DNA of 20,000 nt, from IMG/VR virus record IMGVR_UViG_3300032328_000910. The stretch is one strand, 5' to 3'. The DNA comes from an uncultured virus (IMG/VR IMGVR_UViG_3300032328_000910). Lineage: Duplodnaviria; Heunggongvirae; Uroviricota; Caudoviricetes; Crassvirales. Under the pieces are notes generated by a model, which saw nothing but the letters and a program-made list of their open reading frames with translations, did not search any database and had not been told where the DNA came from. Below, piece by piece: positions 1 through 18,491 of this stretch (within the stretch, counting starts at the first letter, position 1; each line of letters starts with the position of its first letter). A program made the position numbers and the translations under genes.

Positions 1-83
1 AAGGCGATGACGATGATGAAGAAGAGGGTGCTGAAGAATTGTTCTCTGCCCCAAAAACCGAAGCTAAACCTAAAAAGAAATAG
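1..83 (+). CDS. 3' end of an upstream gene with an acidic then basic tail (...GDDDDEEEGAEELFSAPKTEAKPKKK*)
   Basis: Open frame from position 3 to TAG at 81-83, followed by a terminator hairpin. Confidence 0.75.
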   Translation, partial: GDDDDEEEGAEELFSAPKTEAKPKKK

Positions 84-102
84 CTTAGGTATGTAACTAT
101 TA

Positions 103-136
103 AAGCCCGTACACATTAGTGTGCGGGTTATTTTTT
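103..136 (+). terminator. Rho-independent terminator
   Basis: GCCCGTACAC-ATTA-GTGTGCGGGT stem-loop (with G-U pairs) followed by TATTTTTT. Confidence 0.85.
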
Positions 137-161
137 AATCGGCTTATAATTTATCAAACAT

Positions 162-728
162 ATGAAACTCGAAATCAGATTCCAATTCCCTGTTACTATC
201 CAATTTCAACCTCTTAGAGGTATATTAGCAATAGATGCTGCACGTAATGTAGCTAATTGTAAACTTGATATTGGTCGTATTTCAAATACTATAAACAAAC
301 GTGATAGTATTTTAGTAGAAATAACTGAAGACATTGCAAGAACTGCACCTCAATTTAATAACAGCAATTACGCTGTTATTCAAATTAAATGTCTTTACGT
401 CAATGAAAATGAAGAAGCTCTCACTTGCTTTGAAGAATATGGATTTGTATCTCATACTTCATTTGTAACAAGAGATGCAAGTACAGATGAAGTTCTCAAA
501 GTTGACCTTATGCCTATGCCTGATGAAGAAGCGATTCTTAAGTTTTGGATTGCAAACGGTTGCCCTAATAGCATAACACTTCAAACTATAGCTTATCATA
601 ATAACCGCGAACGTATTAAAGCTGCACAAATAGCTGTTGATATTTATCGCGATGATAATGTGGACGATGTAGAAGAAGATGAAGATGATTACGATTCTTA
701 TGGAGAGGATGACGCGAATGAAGATTAA
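162..728 (+). CDS. Hypothetical phage protein with acidic C-terminal tail
   Basis: 188-aa ORF with an A-rich leader, flanked by terminators. No recognisable motif. Confidence 0.75.
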   Translation: MKLEIRFQFPVTIQFQPLRGILAIDAARNVANCKLDIGRISNTINKRDSILVEITEDIARTAPQFNNSNYAVIQIKCLYVNENEEALTCFEEYGFVSHTSFVTRDASTDEVLKVDLMPMPDEEAILKFWIANGCPNSITLQTIAYHNNRERIKAAQIAVDIYRDDNVDDVEEDEDDYDSYGEDDANED

Positions 729-748
729 TTAGTGTATTGTTTTATCAT

Positions 749-779
749 TACCCTGCACATCACAGTGTAGGGTATTTTT
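749..779 (+). terminator. Rho-independent terminator
   Basis: TACCCTGCAC-ATCACA-GTGTAGGGTA followed by TTTTT. Confidence 0.85.
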
Positions 780-814
780 CTAATCGGCTTGCACATCGTA
801 ATATACCACTGTTC

Positions 815-951
815 TGTACACAGCGCAGACCCAATCTAAACGTAGGGTCGAACCATAAACTTAACCGACTACTAAGTATTGATGTACACAGCGGTAACGA
901 GTGGTATAACCATAACGTTAACCACCTACTAAGGTTTGCGAGCAAACAGCG
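815..951 (+). repeat. Degenerate direct repeats
   Basis: TGTACACAGCG at 815-825 and 883-893. AACCATAAACTTAACCGACTACTAAG (851-876) vs AACCATAACGTTAACCACCTACTAAG (908-933), 22/26 identical. Confidence 0.8.
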
Positions 952-1245
952 CGGTGCGAACGCTACGCTATGTATTTGCGCAGCAGGGTAAATTATTCTC
1001 GGCAGCTAAATTTGGATGAAACTGTTTATTATATTATATGTCAAGTTGTGCTTGGTTGCGCAGCTCTATATATTATACTATATGGTTGTAGTTCTATCTA
1101 TGGTCGCGCAGCTAATACTAAATAATTTACAGCTTCGCATCCACATTGTCGTCATTAAGCTATACATAGTAGGCATATCAGTCATTGTACAGATACTATG
1201 CCTAACAATGCAAAGCCAAATGTAAAAGACAATTTAGATAGGATT

Positions 1246-1272
1246 TTAGGTAAAATATTAGGTAAAATATTA
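1246..1272 (+). repeat. 12-bp tandem repeat TTAGGTAAAATA x2.25
   Basis: Read directly from the sequence. Confidence 0.9.
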
Positions 1273-1318
1273 AGCCGTAGGATTGATTATTGTATTAAGG
1301 TAATAGGTAATTAGAGTG

Positions 1319-1360
1319 TAGGTGTTGCGCTGCGCGTAGCTCTTCGAGCTACTCCACCTA
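1319..1360. other. Nested hairpin at the centre of the composition switch
   Basis: GTAGCTC-TTC-GAGCTAC (1336-1352; C-GAA-G loop on the minus strand) inside an outer TAGGTG/CACCTA pair. GCGC-T-GCGC at 1327-1335. Confidence 0.8.
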
Positions 1361-1578
1361 TTTCTACAAATCTCAAGCCTACCACACATAATAATATAAC
1401 CTAAACTCAATCTAAACCTAAACATCTACTCAATTCTAACAACTACAATCCTCAAAAACTTAACAATATAAGTGTCTAAACAACTACACTTATAACAATC
1501 GCCTGCAATCCAAACTCTACAATTCCAACACTTAATAACTACGCTCTTAATCCTACTAACTCTTAAAACAACATTCAC

Positions 1579-1794
1579 ATGAATATCCACGAAGCTAAAC
1601 AACAACCTAACGGAACTCTTTTTAAACAACCAAACCACACTACAATTTGGATGGTTCGTAATGATAATCTAATAGCAATAGTTAATGGTACAGTTGACTT
1701 TGCTAATTTTGAATTAGAAATCATTAAAGATGTACCACCATCTGAACATAAACCTGAAAGTACATATATTACTTCACTTAGACTTTGGTTATAA
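1579..1794 (+). CDS. Small hypothetical protein, paralog of the N-terminus of 2571-2909
   Basis: Shared motif PxGTLFxQP..TTIW; A-rich leader. Confidence 0.75.
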   Translation: MNIHEAKQQPNGTLFKQPNHTTIWMVRNDNLIAIVNGTVDFANFELEIIKDVPPSEHKPESTYITSLRLWL

Positions 1795-1795
1795 C

Positions 1796-2569
1796 ATGAT
1801 TAACGAACAACTCGAAGCTGCTGTATTAGCTCTTAGAAAAGAGTACAATAAGCACATTACATTCGTAGATGATAATACATACAGCGAAATAATGGAAAAC
1901 TTAATTAAAGTTTCAAATCTTATTACCAGTAATGACGAAACTAACATCGAAATTGCATTCATGCTTATGCAGCAAGTATTACCCGACAATGTAAATGACG
2001 CAATAGCTGAGATTGTAAATACTCAACTAATACACAATCGTTACGAAGATAAAACATTACTTATTGCCACTGATAACTACCAAAACCAATGGCACGATGA
2101 ATATTCATTTAAAGGGTTTATGAAACATGATGTGTATCAATCTCCAATTCCTTTTATTCAAATAGAACTTAGCCATACAAGCTATCAAGCTAAATGTTTT
2201 AAAAAGAATGGTAAAGATATGGGTATAATTCGATTTGACAGTTACACTGTAATCTCCATGCAAATCTTCTTCAAGATTGGAGAATATAACTACGCTGAGT
2301 TCGAACTATACTATCCAATTGTTTATCATTTTAATTGCCAAACTCACGGAAAAGATGAACCTCGACTTACAGATGAGATATTCTCTTCTGCTGCAAGTTG
2401 TCAATTACAAACTGATATTAGACAAGCTATAACTGTTGTAACTAACCAAGTAGGTAAGATTAAAGATATTGACATCAAAGTCCTACCATTTAGTTATGAC
2501 ATTGCAGGTAACACCAGCAAACTTGAACCCTATACACTCGAAATCTTAAACCAAATAACACTCTACTAA
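1796..2569 (+). CDS. Hypothetical phage protein
   Basis: Long ORF. The ATG at 1796 (TAA-C-ATG junction) is preferred over the 1730 start, which overlaps the upstream gene. Confidence 0.75.
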   Translation: MINEQLEAAVLALRKEYNKHITFVDDNTYSEIMENLIKVSNLITSNDETNIEIAFMLMQQVLPDNVNDAIAEIVNTQLIHNRYEDKTLLIATDNYQNQWHDEYSFKGFMKHDVYQSPIPFIQIELSHTSYQAKCFKKNGKDMGIIRFDSYTVISMQIFFKIGEYNYAEFELYYPIVYHFNCQTHGKDEPRLTDEIFSSAASCQLQTDIRQAITVVTNQVGKIKDIDIKVLPFSYDIAGNTSKLEPYTLEILNQITLY

Positions 2570-2570
2570 C

Positions 2571-2909
2571 ATGAACAGATTAAAAGCACAGAAAGAACCA
2601 ATTGGCACTCTATTTATGCAACCAGGTGGTTATACCACTATATGGGTAAATACAAACCAAGGACTATATGTCTTTGAAGGCGGAACAACAGGAAATCTCA
2701 ATGATTACCATATTGTTACAATGGACGAACTTACATTGCACATTAAAGATATACTAGAATCTGAATATATTACTACAGGTATTAAGTTAAGTATCATTAA
2801 TTGGCAAAATGCACTTAAACTTAAAGAAGCGTTTAAAGAAGGTGATGAATTGTACTATGAAGCTATTACTAAACTTATCACTTACGATGTAAATGCCGAA
2901 AACAAATAA
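2571..2909 (+). CDS. Hypothetical protein, paralog of 1579-1794
   Basis: MNRLKAQKEPIGTLFMQPGGYTTIW matches MNIHEAKQQPNGTLFKQPNHTTIW; TAA-C-ATG junction. Confidence 0.75.
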   Translation: MNRLKAQKEPIGTLFMQPGGYTTIWVNTNQGLYVFEGGTTGNLNDYHIVTMDELTLHIKDILESEYITTGIKLSIINWQNALKLKEAFKEGDELYYEAITKLITYDVNAENK

Positions 2910-2917
2910 TTAAGAAT

Positions 2918-2966
2918 TAAGCTGTTAAACAGCTTATATATCAAATATTATTTGTATCTTTACAGT
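2918..2966 (+). promoter_or_regulatory. Putative Bacteroidota-like promoter (-7 box variant TATCTTTA) with an upstream 19-bp palindrome
   Basis: TATCTTTACAGT at 2955-2966 is identical to 14858-14869. TAAGCTGTT-A-AACAGCTTA at 2918-2936 covers the expected -33 region. Confidence 0.5.
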
Positions 2967-2974
2967 CCAACAAC

Positions 2975-3026
2975 CGGAAAAGTAGCCAAATTAAGGGCAG
3001 AAACCCCGATTTTAGCTACTTTTTCG
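2975..3026 (+). other. Long stem-loop in the predicted 5' leader (attenuator or small RNA candidate)
   Basis: CGGAAAAGTAGC (2975-2986) pairs with GCTACTTTTTCG (3015-3026); inner GGG/CCC stem. Confidence 0.55.
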
Positions 3027-3102
3027 CTAAAGTGAACACTTACTATTAACCAACGGCGGAAAGCTTTAAAACGGCTATTCCCTGTAATAAAGAACTGGCA
3101 AT

Positions 3103-3549
3103 ATGGGCTATTTTATTGAATCCCTTACAGACAAAACTAACAATATAACTAAGACTGTAACTAAGTCTAAAGTTAAATTTTTAGAAGAACTAACTGAAGA
3201 AGTTGAACGTAAACCTCGTACTACATACAAACGTATGCGAGAAGTTATTACATTTCAACTCCCTTTTATTACAGGGAAACAGCGAGATACACTAACCAAA
3301 GTACGCAACTTTCCAACAGTGACTAAAACTATCAGCCACCGTAACAACGTACTTATTATTGAAAAGCTCATTCAAGATGAAAAAATTGAATGTCTATTTA
3401 ATGATTTAGCTAAACCTCGCATTACAGTTGGTCAAAATGGTTACTGCATCGACTACGACATTATTGTAATTACAGTTCGCTTTGTAGGTACTGATAAACA
3501 AATCAGTATTAGTCACAATGGAGAACTAATATTGCGGTCAAAACCCTGA
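3103..3549 (+). CDS. Hypothetical basic protein
   Basis: 148-aa ORF sharing an RTTYK motif with the next gene. Confidence 0.7.
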   Translation: MGYFIESLTDKTNNITKTVTKSKVKFLEELTEEVERKPRTTYKRMREVITFQLPFITGKQRDTLTKVRNFPTVTKTISHRNNVLIIEKLIQDEKIECLFNDLAKPRITVGQNGYCIDYDIIVITVRFVGTDKQISISHNGELILRSKP

Positions 3550-3572
3550 AATTCTTATATATTAGGGGCTTA

Positions 3573-3677
3573 TAAGTCGTTGATAATCAATAAGTTACGA
3601 CCGATTTTTTCCGTCCTGCGCGGAAAATTTGCACGCGCTACGCGGAAAAACCCGACCACGAACCGTTATTTAATAAC
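3573..3677. promoter_or_regulatory. Cluster of candidate protein-binding sites (iteron- or operator-like) upstream of the RepL-like gene
   Basis: Imperfect palindrome TAAGTCGTTGAT-A-ATCAATAAGTTA (3573-3597). CT(G/A)CGCGGAAAA at 3616-3627 and 3638-3649 (22-bp period). Inverted TTTTCCG at 3607-3613. GTTATT-T-AATAAC at 3665-3677. Confidence 0.5.
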
Positions 3678-3693
3678 CAACATAATACTGTAA

Positions 3694-4191
3694 GTGAAGA
3701 AAACAATCAACCCCAGCTTACTAATCTACTTACATAATCAAGACAATCTAATTGGTGATGCAATTAAACCTGTATCTAAGATTAAGACTAATAGCTTACC
3801 TGCTGAAATAGCTAATGAAATTTCAGAAGAACAGCTTGAAGCTTGGAAGTGTAAGGCTCGTACTACATATAAGACACAGTTTGTCTACGAGTTTACAGAT
3901 TATCCGTACCGCGTACTTAATGAACTTGGTATGAAAGCTTATGGGTTTATTAAACATCATAAGCTTAAATTCCATAGTGACGAGTTTACGCTTAGCATTG
4001 AAGACATTATGACCGAACTATCTATAAAGAAGACAGCAGCCTACAATGTAATTAAGCATCTACTTGATGCAAAGATTATATTTAAGACTGATTACAAAGA
4101 TGTATTTTATATCAATGTGCTGATAGTCTTTAAAGGTAACATAAAGAGGTTGTTAGATACCAAATTAAGTAATGATAAATTAATCCGCTAA
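3694..4191 (+). CDS. RepL-like (plasmid replication protein family) winged helix-turn-helix protein
   Basis: C-terminal HTH-wing pattern LSIEDIMTELSIKKTAAYNVIKHLLDAKII...FYINVLIVFKGN resembles the RepL Y-x-I-N-P-x-x-x-F-K-G end. GTG start. Confidence 0.65.
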   Translation: MKKTINPSLLIYLHNQDNLIGDAIKPVSKIKTNSLPAEIANEISEEQLEAWKCKARTTYKTQFVYEFTDYPYRVLNELGMKAYGFIKHHKLKFHSDEFTLSIEDIMTELSIKKTAAYNVIKHLLDAKIIFKTDYKDVFYINVLIVFKGNIKRLLDTKLSNDKLIR

Positions 4192-4675: not shown

Positions 4676-5083
4676 GTGAATACGCTTATAACTCTTTTAA
4701 GCCAAAGAAGTCAAAAAGCAAATAAGGTTCTCGGTGCATGGTATAATGAACGACAGTTTACATTACCATTTACTGACTTTCTTATGCTTGACAATGTACA
4801 CCTACAAGTAGGAGTCTTTAAGCAATTCTTTATTAGTCGATATAACGTCGACATAGAGTATTCGCATAGAGGTTATTCTATTGCAGCTGCTCAACAGCTA
4901 AGTAAATATGAAGATGACTTCCGTTATAATAAACGTGACGGAGTTTACTATATTGAATATAACTATTCAATTCTAAGTACTGCACCTGATGATTATCTCA
5001 CTTCAATTGAGAAAGAAACTGAATATTGGCTTATTAAAAGCGTGTTGTCCGCAATGGAGTGGATAGATGCTGGAATTACATAA
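4676..5083 (+). CDS. Hypothetical phage protein
   Basis: 135-aa ORF with a GTG start, tightly packed between neighbours. Confidence 0.7.
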   Translation: MNTLITLLSQRSQKANKVLGAWYNERQFTLPFTDFLMLDNVHLQVGVFKQFFISRYNVDIEYSHRGYSIAAAQQLSKYEDDFRYNKRDGVYYIEYNYSILSTAPDDYLTSIEKETEYWLIKSVLSAMEWIDAGIT

Positions 5084-5093
5084 CACAATAAAA

Positions 5094-6686
5094 ATGGACT
5101 TTAATAAACTTCTTGACGACAAAAAAGCTCTTGAACTTCAACAACCTAATCAGCTATCTGCTGATGAAGTTGAAGAAGAGATAGATGCCATTCAGCTAAA
5201 CGAATGTCAAGAACTTGCAGTTCAAGATATAGTCGGTTGGGCTTACACTAAAGGTGGTAGCTCATGGACTCTATCAGGTGCTGCCGGTACAGGCAAAACA
5301 TTTGTTACTAATGTTATTCTTAAACAAATCCGACAAAGTGCTATATGTGTTAGTGCACCTACGCATAAGGCTAAAAAAATAGTTGGAGATGTTACAGGGT
5401 ATCATGCTGAAACCCTACAAGCTCTATTAGGTCTTGCACCTAATCAAGACGTTGAAGATTTTGACATCAATCGCGCTAAGTTTGACCAAAAGAACAAAGC
5501 AAAGATTAAAAACTACAGCTTCATAGTAATAGATGAAGCCTCGATGATAGGTAAGGACTTGTTCAACCTATTAATGAAAGAAGCTAAGGAATGTGGGTGC
5601 AAGATTCTATTTGTAGGTGACCACATACAACTACCGCCTATTGGTGAAGAGATAAGTCCTGTATTTATCCCTAATCAAACAGCTGGTATTAGTGTTCTTA
5701 AGACACCTGCAAGACAGAAACCAAGTAATCCTGCAAGTATGCTACTGATAGCATTAAGAATAGATATAGATATAGCTCAAGCTAATAATCTATTTCCATA
5801 TCTTGAGATTGCTATTCTATTGTTTGGCGGTAATAATACAGATGTACTCAATGCTCGTAATGCAATTCGCGGTCATGGTGTATTTCGCACTCTAATCAAT
5901 CGTTTTCCTGAATTATGGAATAACGGTGAAGGATACAAACGATTTACAGATGCGGTTGATTTTGCAGATGCGATAAAAGAACTGTACAGTAATGTAAATC
6001 CAAGTGATTTTGATTATATTAAAATGCTCGCTTTCACTAATAAGCGTGTAAGTGAATATAATCGCGCTCTTAGAGATATTGTACTGAAGAACCCTGAAAA
6101 GCCGATAGTAGTTGGAGATATTCTTATTTCTTATACTACCATTAGTAAGTACCCTGAAAAATCGAATGTAGTTGTAAACTCTGAAGAATATACAGTTGTA
6201 TCTGTCGAAGAGTTTGAAACTTCATTTGGTATTGACGTATTTGCTGTTGGTATGGAAACTGATAAAGGTGTCCGTACTGACATTAATATAGTCAAAGAAG
6301 AGGCGTATAAGCTCTTCAATATGACTCATAATGTGTGGCTTGATAGAGGAAAAACTAAACGTGATTGGGTAGGTTACTATAAGTTCAAACATGGACATTT
6401 AGTTATGGATAGTCTTAACGACATCTTTAAGACTAAAGACCTGCCTAAGAAAGATGTTGATTACAACTATGCTCTTACAGTGCATAAATCGCAAGGGTCT
6501 ACATATACCCATGCTTGTATTGATGGAAATAACATACGCGAAGCCTACACCTTTGCTAAGTCAGCTAAAGAAATGGAAGGTGGATGGACTGAAAAAGAAG
6601 AGCTTAATGCTCGCCTCTTTACACTTCGACTTATGTATGTAGCATTTAGTCGTGCTAAAGAGAGTGTTAGAATCATATTATCATAA
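5094..6686 (+). CDS. SF1B Dda/RecD-like 5'-3' DNA helicase
   Basis: Motifs GAAGTGKT, APTHKA, IDEASM, GDHIQLPP, AFTNK, YALTVHKSQGSTY, YVAFSRA. Start 5094 avoids overlap with the upstream gene. Confidence 0.92.
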   Translation: MDFNKLLDDKKALELQQPNQLSADEVEEEIDAIQLNECQELAVQDIVGWAYTKGGSSWTLSGAAGTGKTFVTNVILKQIRQSAICVSAPTHKAKKIVGDVTGYHAETLQALLGLAPNQDVEDFDINRAKFDQKNKAKIKNYSFIVIDEASMIGKDLFNLLMKEAKECGCKILFVGDHIQLPPIGEEISPVFIPNQTAGISVLKTPARQKPSNPASMLLIALRIDIDIAQANNLFPYLEIAILLFGGNNTDVLNARNAIRGHGVFRTLINRFPELWNNGEGYKRFTDAVDFADAIKELYSNVNPSDFDYIKMLAFTNKRVSEYNRALRDIVLKNPEKPIVVGDILISYTTISKYPEKSNVVVNSEEYTVVSVEEFETSFGIDVFAVGMETDKGVRTDINIVKEEAYKLFNMTHNVWLDRGKTKRDWVGYYKFKHGHLVMDSLNDIFKTKDLPKKDVDYNYALTVHKSQGSTYTHACIDGNNIREAYTFAKSAKEMEGGWTEKEELNARLFTLRLMYVAFSRAKESVRIILS

Positions 6687-8436: not shown

Positions 8437-9018
8437 ATGAAAACATCGTGGAAAGAAACAATTAAAATAATCCTGTTCTTTATGACATGGGCAGCAACCA
8501 ATGTAAGCATCATTTGGTACACTCATACACATCCACATATTAGTATTGTGGAGAAAGAGAAAATTGTTACTGTTATTGACACTATTGTTAAAACTCAAAT
8601 TGTTTACCGTGATACTTCAGATAGCCAATTTTTTAAGGCTATTCTTGAAATCGAAAGTGGAACTATCACAATGTTTGAAAAAGATAGTACTTATCTCGAC
8701 AAACAAATCTCTGCCGAGCACGGTAGAGGTAAAGGTCACCTTGGCATCTATGAAGTCTGTGTACGTGGTACTGGATTTCATAAGGTATTAGGTTACACTC
8801 ATGATGATATGTTTGAGCTTGAAAAAAGTTCTCATGTATTCTGGGCGATGATGGGTATTTTTGTAGATAGATTTTCACGTAAGTATGGACGTTATCCTAC
8901 ACGTGAAGAACTATCTCGTATGTGGAGCGGTGGTCCAGACGGACATAAAAAGAAATCTACTAAACGTTACGAAACTAAATTTAAAAAACTATATGCTAGT
9001 ATTCGTAACGAACGATAA
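8437..9018 (+). CDS. Lysozyme-like / lytic transglycosylase-fold muralytic enzyme with an N-terminal membrane anchor
   Basis: Hydrophobic IILFFMTWAATNVSIIW segment; catalytic-type ILEIESG; GHLGI; RMWSGGPDG (cf. WNGGP of destabilase/i-type lysozyme-like proteins). Confidence 0.7.
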   Translation: MKTSWKETIKIILFFMTWAATNVSIIWYTHTHPHISIVEKEKIVTVIDTIVKTQIVYRDTSDSQFFKAILEIESGTITMFEKDSTYLDKQISAEHGRGKGHLGIYEVCVRGTGFHKVLGYTHDDMFELEKSSHVFWAMMGIFVDRFSRKYGRYPTREELSRMWSGGPDGHKKKSTKRYETKFKKLYASIRNER

Positions 9019-11620
9019 TAATCGTCATAAATTCAGCGGTATTAACTTAGCTGTCCATCAGTGTAAAACTATGTTTAATGAATTCATTAAAGAAAACAAT
9101 AACGATTTTATTGGCATTGACTTTGAAACTACTGGTCTTGATGCGTTAGTACATCACCCACTACTCATTGCAATTGGTAATGCAAAAGACCAATTTGTAA
9201 TTGATTGTACGACTGTTAATGTCGAACGTTTTTTGGATATGGAAATGAATATGATAAATCATAACTGTAAGTTTGATTTAAAGTATTTTAAAGTACATTA
9301 CCCTGAAGTTCGCATTAAAGAAATCTATGATACTATGATTATGGAACAAAAATTGTTTCAAAATACAAGTCGTAGATTTAGCCTTGATAATCTTGTACTT
9401 AGATATACAGGTGGCGTTCCTGCTGAAATGATAAAAACAACTCGACTTGAATTTGTTAATGCAAATCCGAATACAGTTATTTTTACTGATAAGCAAATTA
9501 ATTATGCCGCTACTGATGTAAAACATCTGCACGATATCAGAGATAAACAAGTTGCAATGGCTAAAAGTAATGGTCAACTCGAATGGATGATGAACGTAGA
9601 GTTCCCACTAATTGAAGTTTTAGCTACAATGGAATTAACAGGTTTTAATCTGGATGTACCTGCGCTTAAAGCTATCATTAAGAAAAATCATCAAATTAAG
9701 TTTGATACTGCCATTGCTTTAGATGAAGAAGTTCGTTATCTACGTGACACGTTGTTGCCTGAAAATGAACGTATCTATCTTAAGCATGGTAAATACGACC
9801 GTGAACGTCGTAATGACGTTAAACCTGAATACGTCGGTTTATTTGGTGAAATGAGTGAGTTTGATTATTTCAAGCCTTCTAAAGCTAAAGTTAAGATTGA
9901 CAAAAAAACTCGCACTGTTAAGTTTGATGATAATATTGGTAATATTAATTGGGGTAGTCCTGATGATATTATGGAAATTTTTGCCAAACTAAAGCAGCCT
10001 CTTCCATTACAGGGAGAGATTGCTAAAAAGTATGGGTATCTTATCCCTGTAATAAAGAATGGTAAACTGCTCAAACATTTAGGTATAAATGCCAATGGTG
10101 AGCAAGTTACAATTACTGGTAGTAGTACTCAAGGAGAAGGTTTTACAATTGGTAAAAAAGCTTTCATAAAATATTTCATTGACAATCCGCATACACCTAT
10201 GCGTAAGTTAATAAAACTACTTGAAACTTATACCAAAGCGAGCCATGAAATTAGTAGCTTTGGTGAAAATTTCATAAACAATCTCAATCCGCGTACAAAT
10301 AGAATCCATACTGCAATTCGTCAATGCGAATCTGTAAATGGACGTTTGCAATCAGGTGGAGGTAAATTGGAAAGCGACAAAGTAAATCTTCAAAACATTC
10401 CACGCTTGAAAGAGTTTAGACAGTTGTTTTATGGTACTAAAGGAAATAGTGTTATCACTTGTGACCTTACTGGTGCTGAAGTTACATTTATGTGTGACAT
10501 GGCAAACGATGAAACTCTATATGAATGGGCTGTTGTAAATGACGATAGTCATAGTCCAATGGTGCAAAATGTATGGCGTACTATATTTGAGTATCGTGCA
10601 GGTCTTGAAGCTGGTTATTGGGAAAACGCGTACAAATTCTTTAACAAGCGTAATAAAGATAACTTTCTAAAGATGCTTTCACACCCCAATGCAGAAGTGC
10701 GTAAACTTGTTGACTTAGCTATTAACTTTAAAGTTAATAAAAAAGAAAACACAGCTTATCGTGTAGCTGGTAAAAATGGTACGTTTGGAGGTATATATGG
10801 AATGAAAGCTCGTAAAGCGCAAGAAACTTTTAACGGTACTGATATTGAGTTAGCTAAAGCTGACCCTAATTTTAAGCCTGTTAATGTTACTCTCGAAGAA
10901 GGAAAGGTTATTTTGTATGCGCAAAAACGTGCTATTCCTAAAACTTTTGCTATGGTTGAACGTAACGTTCAACTTGCATTTAAACAAGGATATCTCGTTC
11001 TTAACGACCGTAGTAATAGCCGTATTTGGTTTGAAGGTGTTATTAATATGTTCAAATTTATTAATTCTGAATATGGCGATAACGTTTCTATTGAATATGA
11101 TGGTAACAACTCATACAATGTTCGAGATAGTGATGACGAATACATTGGTAGTGAAGAACTTGATTGGAATATTGCAAAAGACCTTGATGGTCAAGCTCGT
11201 AATGTTCCGATTAGTGGAACTCAAGCTGATTGTGTCAAAGAAGCTATGGTCATTATAGACAAAGCTATTAAAAGTCATAATCTCACCGATAAATGTTTCT
11301 TACTGTCCCAAGTACACGATGAACTTGTTTACGATTGTCCTAAATACCTCGACGGTCAAAGTCAAGAATGGATTGATAATCGAAATGGTGTCGGGCACGG
11401 TTTTGTTTACAAAGCTGACCCTGATGACGATTTGTACAAAATTGCAGAACAAGGTGGTATTCATATTATAGGAGAACCTTATGACCTTAGTGGTAATAGG
11501 TATCTTGATATGAGTTTCGCTTATTTCATTAAATGTATGCTAATCAAAGCAGCGAATCGTTTCTTAAAGAACGTAAAGATGCAAGCGTCAATCGAGATAC
11601 ATGACACATGGACGAAATAA
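8993..11620 (+). CDS. polA: Family A DNA polymerase with 3'-5' exonuclease and no 5' nuclease domain
   Basis: ExoI DFETTG, ExoII HNCKFD, ExoIII YAATD; NGRLQS, NLQNIP, motif A DLTGAE, motif B RVAGKNGTFGGIYG, motif C QVHDE. Start 8993 preferred over 8885. Confidence 0.95.
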   Translation: MLVFVTNDNNRHKFSGINLAVHQCKTMFNEFIKENNNDFIGIDFETTGLDALVHHPLLIAIGNAKDQFVIDCTTVNVERFLDMEMNMINHNCKFDLKYFKVHYPEVRIKEIYDTMIMEQKLFQNTSRRFSLDNLVLRYTGGVPAEMIKTTRLEFVNANPNTVIFTDKQINYAATDVKHLHDIRDKQVAMAKSNGQLEWMMNVEFPLIEVLATMELTGFNLDVPALKAIIKKNHQIKFDTAIALDEEVRYLRDTLLPENERIYLKHGKYDRERRNDVKPEYVGLFGEMSEFDYFKPSKAKVKIDKKTRTVKFDDNIGNINWGSPDDIMEIFAKLKQPLPLQGEIAKKYGYLIPVIKNGKLLKHLGINANGEQVTITGSSTQGEGFTIGKKAFIKYFIDNPHTPMRKLIKLLETYTKASHEISSFGENFINNLNPRTNRIHTAIRQCESVNGRLQSGGGKLESDKVNLQNIPRLKEFRQLFYGTKGNSVITCDLTGAEVTFMCDMANDETLYEWAVVNDDSHSPMVQNVWRTIFEYRAGLEAGYWENAYKFFNKRNKDNFLKMLSHPNAEVRKLVDLAINFKVNKKENTAYRVAGKNGTFGGIYGMKARKAQETFNGTDIELAKADPNFKPVNVTLEEGKVILYAQKRAIPKTFAMVERNVQLAFKQGYLVLNDRSNSRIWFEGVINMFKFINSEYGDNVSIEYDGNNSYNVRDSDDEYIGSEELDWNIAKDLDGQARNVPISGTQADCVKEAMVIIDKAIKSHNLTDKCFLLSQVHDELVYDCPKYLDGQSQEWIDNRNGVGHGFVYKADPDDDLYKIAEQGGIHIIGEPYDLSGNRYLDMSFAYFIKCMLIKAANRFLKNVKMQASIEIHDTWTK

Positions 11621-11634
11621 AAATTGTTTAAAAT

Positions 11635-13077
11635 ATGGAAAAAACTGAAAGACAAAGTATAGGTGCTAATAAGTGGCGTGATAATAAAGGTAAAGGACTT
11701 GTAGTTCAACCTACGGGTTTTGGAAAAACTATCGGAACGATACGCCAAATTGTAGTCCCTATGCTACAAAAAGCACCCTACAAGATTTTAATATTAGTGC
11801 ATCGTACTAAGTTATTAGAACAATGGAAAAGTCGCTTAGACGCGGAAATAAGCCCTAAATTTCGGGGCATGGTTCGCGTTGAAACGGTGCAATGGTATAT
11901 AACTAATAATGCTATTGATGCTGTTGATTTACTTGTAGTTGATGAAATACATAAGTTTTACAGTGAAGATTACATTGAATATATTAATGGTAATAAAATT
12001 AAGTTTAAGTTTAATCTTGGACTTACAGCTACGCCATACGACAAATATAAACGATGGAAACTACTTGAAACTATATATCCGATTGTCGATGAAATTACAC
12101 AAGAAGAAGCTATCCGCGAAGGTTGGGTTAGTAACTTCATTGAGTTTAATGTTCCTGTCGCTCTGACAGATGAAGAAATTGAATTGTACAAAGAAGCTGT
12201 TGAAACTGTAGTTGCTGGAGAGTCTAAATTTGACTGTCAAGGTAAATTAGCTATCGACCGTGCTACTAAAGTACTGTACGGTGGCGAAAATAACGAAGGC
12301 GTTCGAGTTACAGGTATCGCATGGGCGACTATGTGGGCTAAGTATAAAGGTTGGAATGCAGAACTCGCTAAAGATGACCCTATTAATCAGCTTTGGAATC
12401 CGCATAAAATTATAGGATATGCCAAGATGATTTTTACAGGGTACAGAGATAGAGATGCTATTCTTAACCATTGTAAATCTAAATACGAAGCTACGATAGC
12501 ATTGCTAAGAAAGTTTAAAGACTTGAAAGCGATGTGTTTCTCTGAAAGTACCGTCTTTGCAGACGACCTTAAAGATAAATATCGCAGGCAATACCAAGAT
12601 GATAAAATGGTTGTATACCATTCTCAGCTTCCATCTACCTATATGAAAGATAGTTTAGGTAACTGGATTACTTACAAAACAGGTAAGAAAGCCGGAGAGC
12701 GTAAGCTATTTGGTAATACTACAATAAAAGAAGCTGTAATGTCGCAGTTTCTTAGTAACGAAGCAAGAATACTTAGTACTGCGCGTATCCTCGATGAAGG
12801 ATTTGATTGTGAAGATATTCGACTTGGTATTATTACAAGTAGAACATCTAATTATAATCAACAAACTCAAAGAGGTGGGCGTATAAAACGAATAATCCCT
12901 ACCACACCGAAGGACGTAATGATGATAGTAAATTTGTACGTGGCAAACACAGAGGATGAACGCAGGCTCAATCAAGCCCAATCCCAATATACCCATAGGG
13001 TTATACCCGTACAAAGTGTTGAAAACGTTAATTTCGATGCGATTGGTGATGATGAAATATCTAATAACGATTTATAA
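11635..13077 (+). CDS. Superfamily 2 DExH helicase (UvsW/XPB/SSL2-like)
   Basis: PTGFGKT, VDEIH, GLTAT, ILDEGFD, QRGGR. Confidence 0.9.
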   Translation: MEKTERQSIGANKWRDNKGKGLVVQPTGFGKTIGTIRQIVVPMLQKAPYKILILVHRTKLLEQWKSRLDAEISPKFRGMVRVETVQWYITNNAIDAVDLLVVDEIHKFYSEDYIEYINGNKIKFKFNLGLTATPYDKYKRWKLLETIYPIVDEITQEEAIREGWVSNFIEFNVPVALTDEEIELYKEAVETVVAGESKFDCQGKLAIDRATKVLYGGENNEGVRVTGIAWATMWAKYKGWNAELAKDDPINQLWNPHKIIGYAKMIFTGYRDRDAILNHCKSKYEATIALLRKFKDLKAMCFSESTVFADDLKDKYRRQYQDDKMVVYHSQLPSTYMKDSLGNWITYKTGKKAGERKLFGNTTIKEAVMSQFLSNEARILSTARILDEGFDCEDIRLGIITSRTSNYNQQTQRGGRIKRIIPTTPKDVMMIVNLYVANTEDERRLNQAQSQYTHRVIPVQSVENVNFDAIGDDEISNNDL

Positions 13078-17375: not shown

Positions 17376-18491
17376 ATGAAGAAAAATTATATGTTACCCG
17401 ACCTAACTAAATCTTACATTCTCGATAATGTTAGTCAAGAAGATATATTTGCAGCTTATTTTGATGTTTCGCTTGCAGATATTGAATATTGTATTAGTAA
17501 AGGCAAGTTAATAGGAAGCGCGGTACGTAGCGTTGACGAGCGTCCGAGTATGGGCTTTACTAAACGTGCAGATGGAAAAATTGTTTGTCGTGATTTCGGT
17601 GGTTATTTTTGGGGTGATTGCTTCGATGCAGCTGCATTTGCACTTAATGCTGATGTTAAAAATAGCAGAGAGTTTATGCTTTTGCTTGTACATATAGCTA
17701 AAACCTTTAGAATACATGAATATACCGATGGACATACTTTTAAGAATGTGATTAAGACTACAACTAATTATATACCGCAAGGTAAAATTAGTCCTGTATT
17801 TGAGTTTAAGTTCCGAGATTGGGATGTGAATGACGGAAAGTATTGGTACAATAAGTATGGGATTACAAGAGCTATTCTTGAAGCCCATAGTGTTTACGCA
17901 ATACAAATACTATGGGTTAACGGTAAGATTGTCTATACGTATCGTAATACTGACCCTGCATATGGTTACTATCTTGGTCAGATTGGTGACTTACTTATTT
18001 GGAAAATATATTTTCCTTATAGGAAAGAGTATAGATTTATGACTAATGGTTCTCTAATTCAAGGTGGGAAACTGCTTAGAGAAGTTGAACATGGTGTAGT
18101 AATTAAGTCACTTAAAGACGTGATGCAATTAGCTGTATTCGCAGACACTATTTCTTTACAGGGAATTGCGCCTGCGAGTGAAACTATGATTCTAAATAGA
18201 GAACAATTTACTTATGTTGAAACATATTGGAAAGAGAATATATATACATTTAGTGATTTCGACCTCACTGGAGTTAGATTTGGAAGTGAAATGAGAAGGC
18301 GGTATAAAACTCGCCCTCTTTATCTCACTAATGGTCGATTTAACACTATTAATTTTCAAGCAAAAGATATAAGTGATTATGTAAGTAAGTTTGGTTTAAT
18401 ACAAGCCGAGAAGCTTATACTTCAATTTATAGAAGTTGGTGAAAATATAATAGACGATTGGGATTTTATTGTTAACGAACTTAAACATTAA
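17376..18491 (+). CDS. DnaG-type (TOPRIM) DNA primase of crAss-like type
   Basis: SAVRSVDERPSMGF / RDFGG..GDCFD N-terminal domain, WKIYFP, IKSLKDVM, APASE, DxD motif DFD, KDISDY. Confidence 0.85.
   Translation: MKKNYMLPDLTKSYILDNVSQEDIFAAYFDVSLADIEYCISKGKLIGSAVRSVDERPSMGFTKRADGKIVCRDFGGYFWGDCFDAAAFALNADVKNSREFMLLLVHIAKTFRIHEYTDGHTFKNVIKTTTNYIPQGKISPVFEFKFRDWDVNDGKYWYNKYGITRAILEAHSVYAIQILWVNGKIVYTYRNTDPAYGYYLGQIGDLLIWKIYFPYRKEYRFMTNGSLIQGGKLLREVEHGVVIKSLKDVMQLAVFADTISLQGIAPASETMILNREQFTYVETYWKENIYTFSDFDLTGVRFGSEMRRRYKTRPLYLTNGRFNTINFQAKDISDYVSKFGLIQAEKLILQFIEVGENIIDDWDFIVNELKH

Follow-up and report, generated by a model that had tools for sequence, protein, structure and literature searches.

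A cluster of GCGNAGC heptamers beside a candidate early promoter in a distant crAss-like phage

The 20,000-nt stretch of DNA analysed here (hereafter the window) comes from an uncultured virus recorded in IMG/VR as IMGVR_UViG_3300032328_000910, and all of its open reading frames (ORFs) of appreciable length lie on the plus strand. An 850-nt gap (729-1578) separates the ORF at 162-728 from the small ORFs that precede the replication module, and within this gap the heptamer GCGNAGC occurs seven times. The plus strand carries it at 978-984, 1058-1064 and 1106-1112 (loop GCA) and at 1334-1340 (GTA), and the minus strand at 962-968 (GTA), 1132-1138 (GAA) and 1329-1335 (GCA). These positions and strands are as given in an initial annotation of the DNA, which had regarded the heptamers as very stable GNA-triloop mini-hairpins read on single-stranded or extruded DNA. 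Two hairpins described there were also found, namely a palindrome GTTTGC-GA-GCAAAC at 934-947 and a 7-bp stem GTAGCTC-TTC-GAGCTAC at 1336-1352 with a GAA loop on the bottom strand. Outside the cluster, the copies reported at 3637 and 6538 are correct, but a third at 12028-12034 on the minus strand had been overlooked.

The annotation had proposed a comparison with background, and enrichment was confirmed in the whole window as well as locally. The window contains 10 copies of GCGNAGC, while 3.03 ± 1.76 are expected, and at least 10 were obtained in 0 of 200 shuffles. For the seven local copies, the dinucleotide-shuffle expectation was 0.39 (934-1352), 0.28 (729-1578) or 0.34 (800-1360). Dinucleotide shuffles of the region gave a maximum of 4 copies and reached 7 in 0 of 5000, and block shuffles that keep the composition, in which 0.08-0.10 copies are expected, reached 4 in 0 of 5000. 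The enrichment is specific to a 3-nt spacing, because 10 of the 26 GC-N3-GC sites in the window fall inside 729-1578 as against 3 of 18 sites with an N2 spacer, 1 of 36 with N4 and 1 of 25 with N6; seven of these ten GC-N3-GC sites read GNA on one strand. At the centre of the loop, the heptamers have C in four cases, T in two and A in one. The seven sites are not independent, since those at 978, 1058 and 1106, together with a variant at 1324-1333 that gives rise to the minus-strand site at 1329, are copies of one 10-mer. The heptamer cluster is a real, non-random statistical oddity.

The 10-mer, GTTGCGCAGC, is present at 975-984 (copy A), 1055-1064 (copy B), 1103-1112 (copy C) and, as the variant, 1324-1333 (copy D), with spacings of 80, 48 and 221 nt. 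Four of the seven heptamers derive from these boxes, which are absent from the remainder of the window. In natural variants TCGCGCAGC is changed to TTGCGCAGC, and therefore the sequence common to all box copies is a 9-mer, longer than the heptamer. Copy A is part of a GC-rich 5' element (CAGCGCGGTGCGAACGCTACGC...TTTGCGCAGC, 947-984), which holds the heptamers 962-968(-) and 978-984(+). Copy B, with the heptamer 1058-1064, forms the 3' arm of a plus-strand hairpin, AGTTGTGC-TTGGTT-GCGCAGCT (1044-1065), which was recovered as a terminator-like match in a terminator scan and also in the minimum free energy (MFE) fold of the RNA. MFE folding also paired copy C (heptamer 1106-1112) with GCTTCGC at 1132-1138, the GCGAAGC heptamer of the bottom strand, in a plus-strand structure at 1103-1138 with a 17-nt AT loop. 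Copy D, which reads GTTGCGCTGC, and the two heptamers 1329-1335(-) and 1334-1340(+) lie within a composite 3' stem-loop on the plus strand (1318-1361; -17.8 kcal/mol, z -2.95), where an outer stem GTAGGTG/CCACCTA surrounds GCG-CTG-CGC and the 7-bp hairpin at 1336-1352.

Further elements frame these boxes. Upstream of them, the plus strand carries two copies of a promoter-like motif, M1, with the 31-nt consensus ACCATAAAC-N2-4-AACCACCTACTAAG-NTTTG. Copy 2 (AACCATAACG-TT-AACCACCTACTAAGGTTTG, 908-938) scored 32.0 bits with a position weight matrix, and the weaker copy 1 (AACCATAAAC-TT-AACCGACTACTAAGTATTG, 851-881), which forms the direct repeat D2 with copy 2, scored 24.3 bits. The palindrome at 934-947 overlaps the 3' TTTG of M1. 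Between the 5' element and the first hairpin stands a plus-strand box, GGCAGCTA (M2, 1001-1008), which is preceded by AAyTATnCTn and occurs once in the window. Downstream of the 3' stem-loop, a G-depleted, C/A-rich untranslated leader occupies 1353-1578 on the plus strand and ends at the ORF 1579-1794; it contains 6 G in 226 nt, compared with a window median of 38 G per 200 nt. Its composition would suit a Rho-loading (rut-like) site or an unstructured translation leader, and it lies between the GC stem-loop and the opening gene of an operon that continues into the replication genes.

The annotation had brought up crAss-like phages as carriers of a virion-packaged RNA polymerase, and comparisons of PolA, portal, TerL and the major capsid protein (MCP) bear out this context. 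PolA of the window is ~25% identical to PolA of crAss-like phages. The closest relative retrieved, locus L015, encodes a helicase 39% identical to that of the window and sits on G001, a contig of 78,689 bp that is complete according to CheckV and syntenic with the window. G001 has a crAss-type portal, TerL and MCP, and the MCP is 36-38% identical over 98% of the length to Crassvirales capsid proteins. By these comparisons, the phage is a distant crAss-like phage. The late genes of G001 run leftward, while its early and replication genes run rightward from ~41.4 kb, and the homologue of the gap 729-1578 is located 2-3 kb into the rightward block.

A motif scan of metagenome_contigs returned 12 loci, of which three were taken to be relatives on the basis of their flanking sequence, namely L093, related at the strain level with 80-96% identity, and the more distant L089 and L095. 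A second motif pattern matched three loci in viral_contigs, one of them on the contig of L015 itself, and 54 in genome_contigs; these loci were taken as chance matches because, after filtering, none had the upstream half of M1 in an AT-rich context. The window, L093, L015, L089, and L095 have a layout in common that consists of M1, a palindrome at its 3' end, GGCAGCTA, a 3' stem-loop and a G-poor leader, and in which a terminator followed by the 9-mer AATCGGCTT, lineage-specific direct repeats and one or two small ORFs also recur. The suggestion of the annotation that 934-1352 is a regulatory region was borne out. The M2 box is found at the homologous position in L093, L015, and L089 and in two copies in L095; by inspection, it is not a coding motif because its reading frames differ or the site lies outside ORFs. 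G-poor leaders are present in L093 (7 G in 227 nt), L015 (3 in 190, 2027-2216) and L095 (3 in 204, 2612-2815). At the place equivalent to that of the boxes, each lineage has direct repeats of its own, TCGTCATGYTCGCAATG in L015, TGWTGTCATTAAT in L089 and CTAAAGAGCNCGGCAGCTATT in L095, each occurring twice. The stem-loops that precede the G-poor leader reach -16.6 kcal/mol (z -2.8) in L015 and -25.5 kcal/mol (z -4.2) in L095, and their loops are unrelated. We also observed that the leader of L089 (1392-1747) is full of palindromes rich in A and T (z -5.8 for one strand and -7.0 for the other).

The heptamers themselves show a different distribution. All seven are present in L093, whereas C-GNA-G heptamers in the homologous stretch number two in L015, one in L089 and none in L095, as against nine in the window. 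The annotation had named a lack of comparable clusters in related phages as evidence against its proposal, and no such cluster was found, with at most 2 copies per 400 nt in the 20-kb loci of 79 relatives. In the relatives the stems are conserved and the GNA loops are not. The hairpins at 934-947 and 1336-1352 are indeed parts of modules whose position is conserved, but their sequences differ between relatives. The proposal that GC-GNA-GC mini-hairpins are the signal is unsupported, as the relatives keep the layout without the heptamers. On present evidence, the cluster appears to be a lineage-specific feature and not a general signal.

In contrast to the heptamers, M1 recurs at corresponding places upstream of early genes. 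Complete G001 (78.7 kb) has only three copies, which all lie on the plus strand at the three units that open the rightward block; the counterpart of copy 2 of the window is the last of the early promoter-like sites in this block. Copies were located in L015 (357-388 and 1298-1328), L089 (481-511 and 1369-1399) and L095 (429, 1270, and 1997), and M1 stands 46-60 nt upstream of ATGs in all three loci. We regard M1 as a candidate early promoter. A perfect 24-bp inverted repeat lies just upstream of the third M1 in L015 (1236-1289). M1 was also compared with four middle-promoter regions taken from the genome of Cellulophaga phage phi14:2. The 3' end of M1 resembles the TAnnTTTG box upstream of the phi14:2 middle genes g070, g075, g108, and g110, but its upstream two-thirds are unlike the TTG element of these regions. 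A Bacteroidota-type -7 box TAnnTTTG at 1007-1014, right after GGCAGC, was rejected as a candidate; it is not kept in L015, L089, or L095, and the motif is frequent in coding DNA. A sigma-70 promoter scan was uninformative, with 18 sites against 18.1 expected.

At the 3' end of M1, all four lineages have an inverted repeat that uses the TTTG of M1 as its 5' arm and differs in sequence from lineage to lineage, so that the stem covaries. The repeat has a folding energy of -11.2 kcal/mol (z -4.6) in L015, -12.4 kcal/mol (z -3.4) in L089 and -7.7 kcal/mol (z -2.8) in L095; the palindrome of the window itself (934-947) is weak, at -3.0 kcal/mol (z 0.1). This palindrome may function as an operator or as a structure in the DNA; an action on DNA would be required if the transcription start lies downstream of it.

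Natural variants of the region came from contigs of four runs labelled freshwater or lake water (X2-X5), and statements on these runs refer to the variant rows listed for them. The segment 934-1039 has no substitution relative to L093 and none among the rows of the runs, while its flanks show indels and 4-20% divergence; the 5' element 947-984 within it is identical in L093 and without a listed variant in X2-X5. C1105T converts box C to TTGCGCAGC in L093, X2, X3, and X4, and A1044G changes the outermost A-U pair of the hairpin 1044-1065 to G-U. A deletion scar was recognized at 1273-1305, where relatives carry 245 nt including a 77-codon ORF (MRKKNYVLSY...). The 245-nt piece is present in L093, X2, and X3 (joint '1273>1305, 245 letters between'), and X4, which has matching loose ends, probably carries it as well. 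Directly before the scar, in a C-free, G/T-rich stretch, a 12-nt sequence, TTAGGTAAAATA, is repeated in tandem (two copies, 1246-1269) and encodes a G-K-I-L repeat of a small ORF at 1198. This second small ORF (1198-1314) has 38 codons, or 43 in L093. Its two natural substitutions, at 1224 and 1242, affect third codon positions and are silent, and the sequence at its start (ATACTATG...CAAAGCC) is kept in L015.

On the upstream side of the gap, the ORF 162-728 has an intrinsic terminator (749-774) with a T-run on the plus strand, as detected in the terminator scan, followed by AATCGGCTT at 782-790 (749-790 in all). The 9-mer follows terminators at 137 and 782 in the window, at 1051 in L015, at 1203 in L089 and in L093. 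Junctions made of a terminator and AATCGGCTT (104-145 and 749-790 in the window, 1015-1059 in L015, and 1160-1211 in L089) flank exchangeable gene cassettes. Run X3 lacks the ORF 162-728 and has the first terminator junction joined directly, and L093 and L015 have unrelated genes in its place, that of L015 also being 188 aa long. On the downstream side, the replication module comprises a Dda-like helicase (5067-6686), PolA (8885-11620), an SF2 helicase, a DnaB-like protein and a primase (17376-18491). A lambda boxA-like sequence, CGCTCTTA, at 1542 was discarded because it is not conserved in L093. A DNA similarity search with 700-1600 against 50,697 phage records gave no match, and viral_contigs yielded neither an exact window 38-mer nor close protein relatives of the 188-aa, 257-aa and helicase queries. 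Rfam models gave nothing at the gathering score on 1-4000, and no tRNA or tmRNA was detected. G001 also encodes a 2043-codon ORF, which runs from position 12568 of L085 to the contig end and continues at the contig start, and because this ORF spans the contig ends, the G001 assembly is circularly permuted. It had no PHROG, PDB or DFDxD match and, if it is a virion polymerase, would be a very divergent one.

We tentatively propose, with somewhat less than even confidence, that the heptamers are lineage-specific cis-regulatory boxes and GC arms of hairpins in an early leader. The most economical reading of the cluster is that it is a composite and not one signal. The copies of GTTGCGCAGC would have arisen by local duplication, with an AT-rich spacer after each of the first three, and the 5' element (947-984) and 3' module (1318-1361) would bracket the unit with one pair of boxes, placed in opposite order at the two ends. 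Heptamers would supply the GC arms of the local hairpins at 1044-1065, 1103-1138, and 1318-1361, and the heptamer at 1132 would be an unconserved member of the composite. The boxes may act on the transcript or as sites for a lineage-specific factor and, in either case, would shape expression that runs from the promoter-like M1 through the G-poor leader to the replication genes. The enrichment, the repeat family, the layout in common with relatives and the covarying stems are demonstrated, whereas the transcription of the region from M1 and the role of the boxes are what we infer.

With respect to a possible transcript, the plus-strand RNA of 930-1360 folds at -123.6 kcal/mol compared with -108.3 ± 4.4 kcal/mol for shuffled sequences (z -3.4, 0 of 100), and the other folds of this segment are weaker, with z -2.3 for the minus-strand RNA and z -1.1 and -2.4 for DNA. 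A1044G and C1352T preserve pairing only as G-U on the plus strand, and both affect terminal pairs. Several observations weigh against the proposal. Among RNA runs, none was found to contain 700-1700. G1137A, found in three of the four runs (X2, X3, and X5), destroys the heptamer 1132-1138, and the predicted pair is lost. In L015 the homologous region shows no unusual degree of structure (z +0.36 and -0.77), and in L089 the two strands are structured to an equal degree (z -5.8 and -7.0), so that a conserved RNA fold is not demonstrated. RNAalifold gave no consensus on four lineages because the hairpins were misaligned, and long-range RNA pairing between the 5' and 3' parts was no better than in shuffled sequences (32 of 500 for the window, 486 of 500 for L015, and 449 of 500 for L095). 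Among the neighboring ORFs, no DNA-binding protein was recognized. Moreover, the enrichment of GC-N3-GC exceeds the repeat family, which a pure box model leaves unexplained. In view of the G-U changes at terminal pairs, the break caused by G1137A, the folds of L015 and L089 and the null result for long-range pairing, we favor an action on RNA only weakly.

Part of the cluster might instead be coding. A candidate small ORF on the plus strand at 1016-1225, with 69 codons and a hydrophobic product, includes the heptamers 1058 and 1106 (V-A-Q-L) and 1132 (Q-L-R-I); it would specify a 69-residue hydrophobic early protein, and 1058/1106 would reflect an in-frame 48-nt duplication. We consider this possible but doubtful, and it is compatible with other explanations for the remaining sites. 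The ORF is intact in L093, where the changes are V>I, K>R, V>V, V>I, Q>E and TAA>TGA at the stop, every substitution being either conservative or silent (p ~0.013 by simulation), although the substitution set of X2/X3 is not significant (p = 0.13). No indels occur within 1016-1225 among the rows listed, in which they appear at 742-890 and beyond 1273, and the L015 repeats are 63 nt apart and in frame in a 40-codon hydrophobic ORF, where GTCGTCAT reads V-V-I/M in both. The codon usage of the ORF 1016-1225 is far from that of the phage genes and speaks against a coding role, with a score of -0.19 per codon compared with 0.35 ± 0.10 for phage genes and a higher score in another frame. Its length is ordinary (p = 0.12), BLASTP comparisons with small ORFs of L089 and L015 are not significant (E 0.27, none, and 1.8), and no match was found in the protein collection; hydrophobic pseudo-ORFs arise easily in AT-rich DNA, which we counted against a coding function. 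A transcription-activated replication origin, made up of an early promoter followed by lineage-specific GC-box iterons and AT-rich unwinding stretches upstream of the replication module, seems unlikely to us. The region has three or four direct repeats with AT-rich spacers near replication genes, as is expected of iterons, and tandem promoter-like motifs stand immediately upstream of them; genes for a helicase, PolA, a DnaB-like protein and a primase follow downstream, the repeats are particular to each lineage, and long AT-rich palindromes are a feature of L089. A promoter combined with an unwinding element makes up the T7 primary origin and T4 oriF/oriG; the tandem promoter-like motifs, with AT-rich DNA after them and replication genes further downstream, resemble such origins, which are not known to have GC-box iterons. 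Furthermore, the relatives have only two repeats each, 729-1578 contains no DnaA box at up to one mismatch, the GC skew tracks gene orientation without an origin signal, and no initiator family was recognized among the neighboring ORFs. Very unlikely, in our view, is a neutral explanation in which a GC-rich segment was duplicated a few times and the heptamers have no function. It would account for the origin of four of the seven sites from one repeat, the loss of one site in variants and the absence of the cluster from relatives. It does not fit with the lack of substitutions in 934-1039 between the window and L093, and among the listed run rows, while the flanks diverge, and the repeat family alone does not account for the N3 spacing and the GNA bias.

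The explanation closest to the initial annotation, that the sites fold, on single-stranded DNA (ssDNA) or where the duplex is unwound, into DNA mini-hairpins with GNA triloops and are read by an injected crAss-type RNA polymerase, a primase or an initiator, is in our judgment distinctly unlikely. The strong, spacing-specific enrichment with GNA at seven of the ten GC-N3-GC sites is what it would lead one to expect, and the M1-end palindrome that covaries in four lineages also accords with it. The excerpts of PMC13037366 used here document mini-hairpins at the G4 origin, RSF1010 ssiA and the early promoters of N4. The primase or initiator signals of G4 oric and RSF1010 ssiA have heptamers of the GCGAAGC or CCGAAGG type at initiation sites, and the phage of the window encodes its own primase; unlike the cluster of seven described here, those are single defined hairpins on ssDNA genomes or exposed strands. 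In phi14:2, according to the excerpted parts of 10.1101/2020.03.07.982082, gp66 transcribes ssDNA and hardly double-stranded DNA, and the early transcripts have no common upstream motif. A single triloop heptamer on the bottom strand lies ~24 nt upstream of GGCAGCT in both L015 (GCGGAGC) and L089 (TCGAAGA), but at the equivalent site of the window GNA is on the top strand. The stems comprise only 2-3 bp, the loop centre is C or T in six of seven sites, the heptamer 1132-1138 is lost in natural variants, relatives have no cluster, and their 3' module consists of long stems with unrelated loops. A search with the T7-like polymerase profile PF00940 gave no match in G001, and the control genomes were likewise without a match. 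A more specific version of the idea, which we regard as quite improbable, is that M1 is the promoter of an injected crAss-type virion RNA polymerase and that the M1-end palindrome and downstream heptamers are DNA-level structures, extruded or folded on the unwound strand, that provide an entry point for an enzyme preferring ssDNA. The crAss-type virion RNA polymerase has no known promoter consensus.

The annotation had likened the heptamers to the promoters of phage N4. In the excerpted parts of PMC4496689 and PMC13037366, N4 promoters are described as a GC-rich heptamer centred at -11 with flanking inverted repeats that form 5-7 bp stems, read on the template strand by a T7-like virion polymerase with the aid of supercoiling and a single-stranded DNA-binding protein; their loops are GGA or GAA (PMC13037366). 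The GC-rich heptamers of N4 promoters are likewise of the GCGNAGC type, and N4 groups its three early promoters where the early region begins, much as the M1 copies are placed in G001. The hairpin 1336-1352 also has a 7-bp stem and a GAA loop on the template strand, although its counterparts in relatives do not. By inspection, however, the heptamers of the window are without flanking inverted repeats, with 2-3 complementary pairs each, and their loops are mostly GCA or GTA. The phage has crAss-type architecture and is not a schitovirus, which would imply a different polymerase family, and the element conserved at promoter positions upstream of early genes is the linear M1 and not a hairpin. 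Assignment to the N4 type fails because flanking inverted repeats are absent, six of the seven loop centres are pyrimidines and the phage family is different; neither the stems nor the conservation expected of N4-type hairpin promoters was found for the heptamers, and only one of them has a purine at the loop centre.

A parallel in genome layout is offered by phi14:2. Its g004-g005 and g005-g006 regions are long gene-poor stretches (700-1700 nt) that lie, in early-gene orientation, a few kb into the rightward early block, and the gap 729-1578 is likewise a long gene-poor stretch inside a rightward early block. The excerpts of 10.1101/2020.03.07.982082 report abundant early non-coding RNAs from these intergenic regions of phi14:2, with their function left unexplained. 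Similarity in sequence, M1 or heptamers is lacking; the 4 copies of GCGNAGC in the 100 kb of phi14:2 all fall outside the two intergenic regions, and there is one chance M1-like match. In addition, phi14:2 encodes PolB, unlike the PolA of the window.

With regard to how crAss-like phages start early transcription, the clade described here offers a sharply defined early promoter-like motif together with a covarying palindrome at its end, lineage-specific repeat boxes and a G-depleted leader. If M1 were in fact the promoter of an injected virion polymerase, then M1, its palindrome and the heptamers would be a functional analogue of the N4 hairpin promoters in an unrelated polymerase family.

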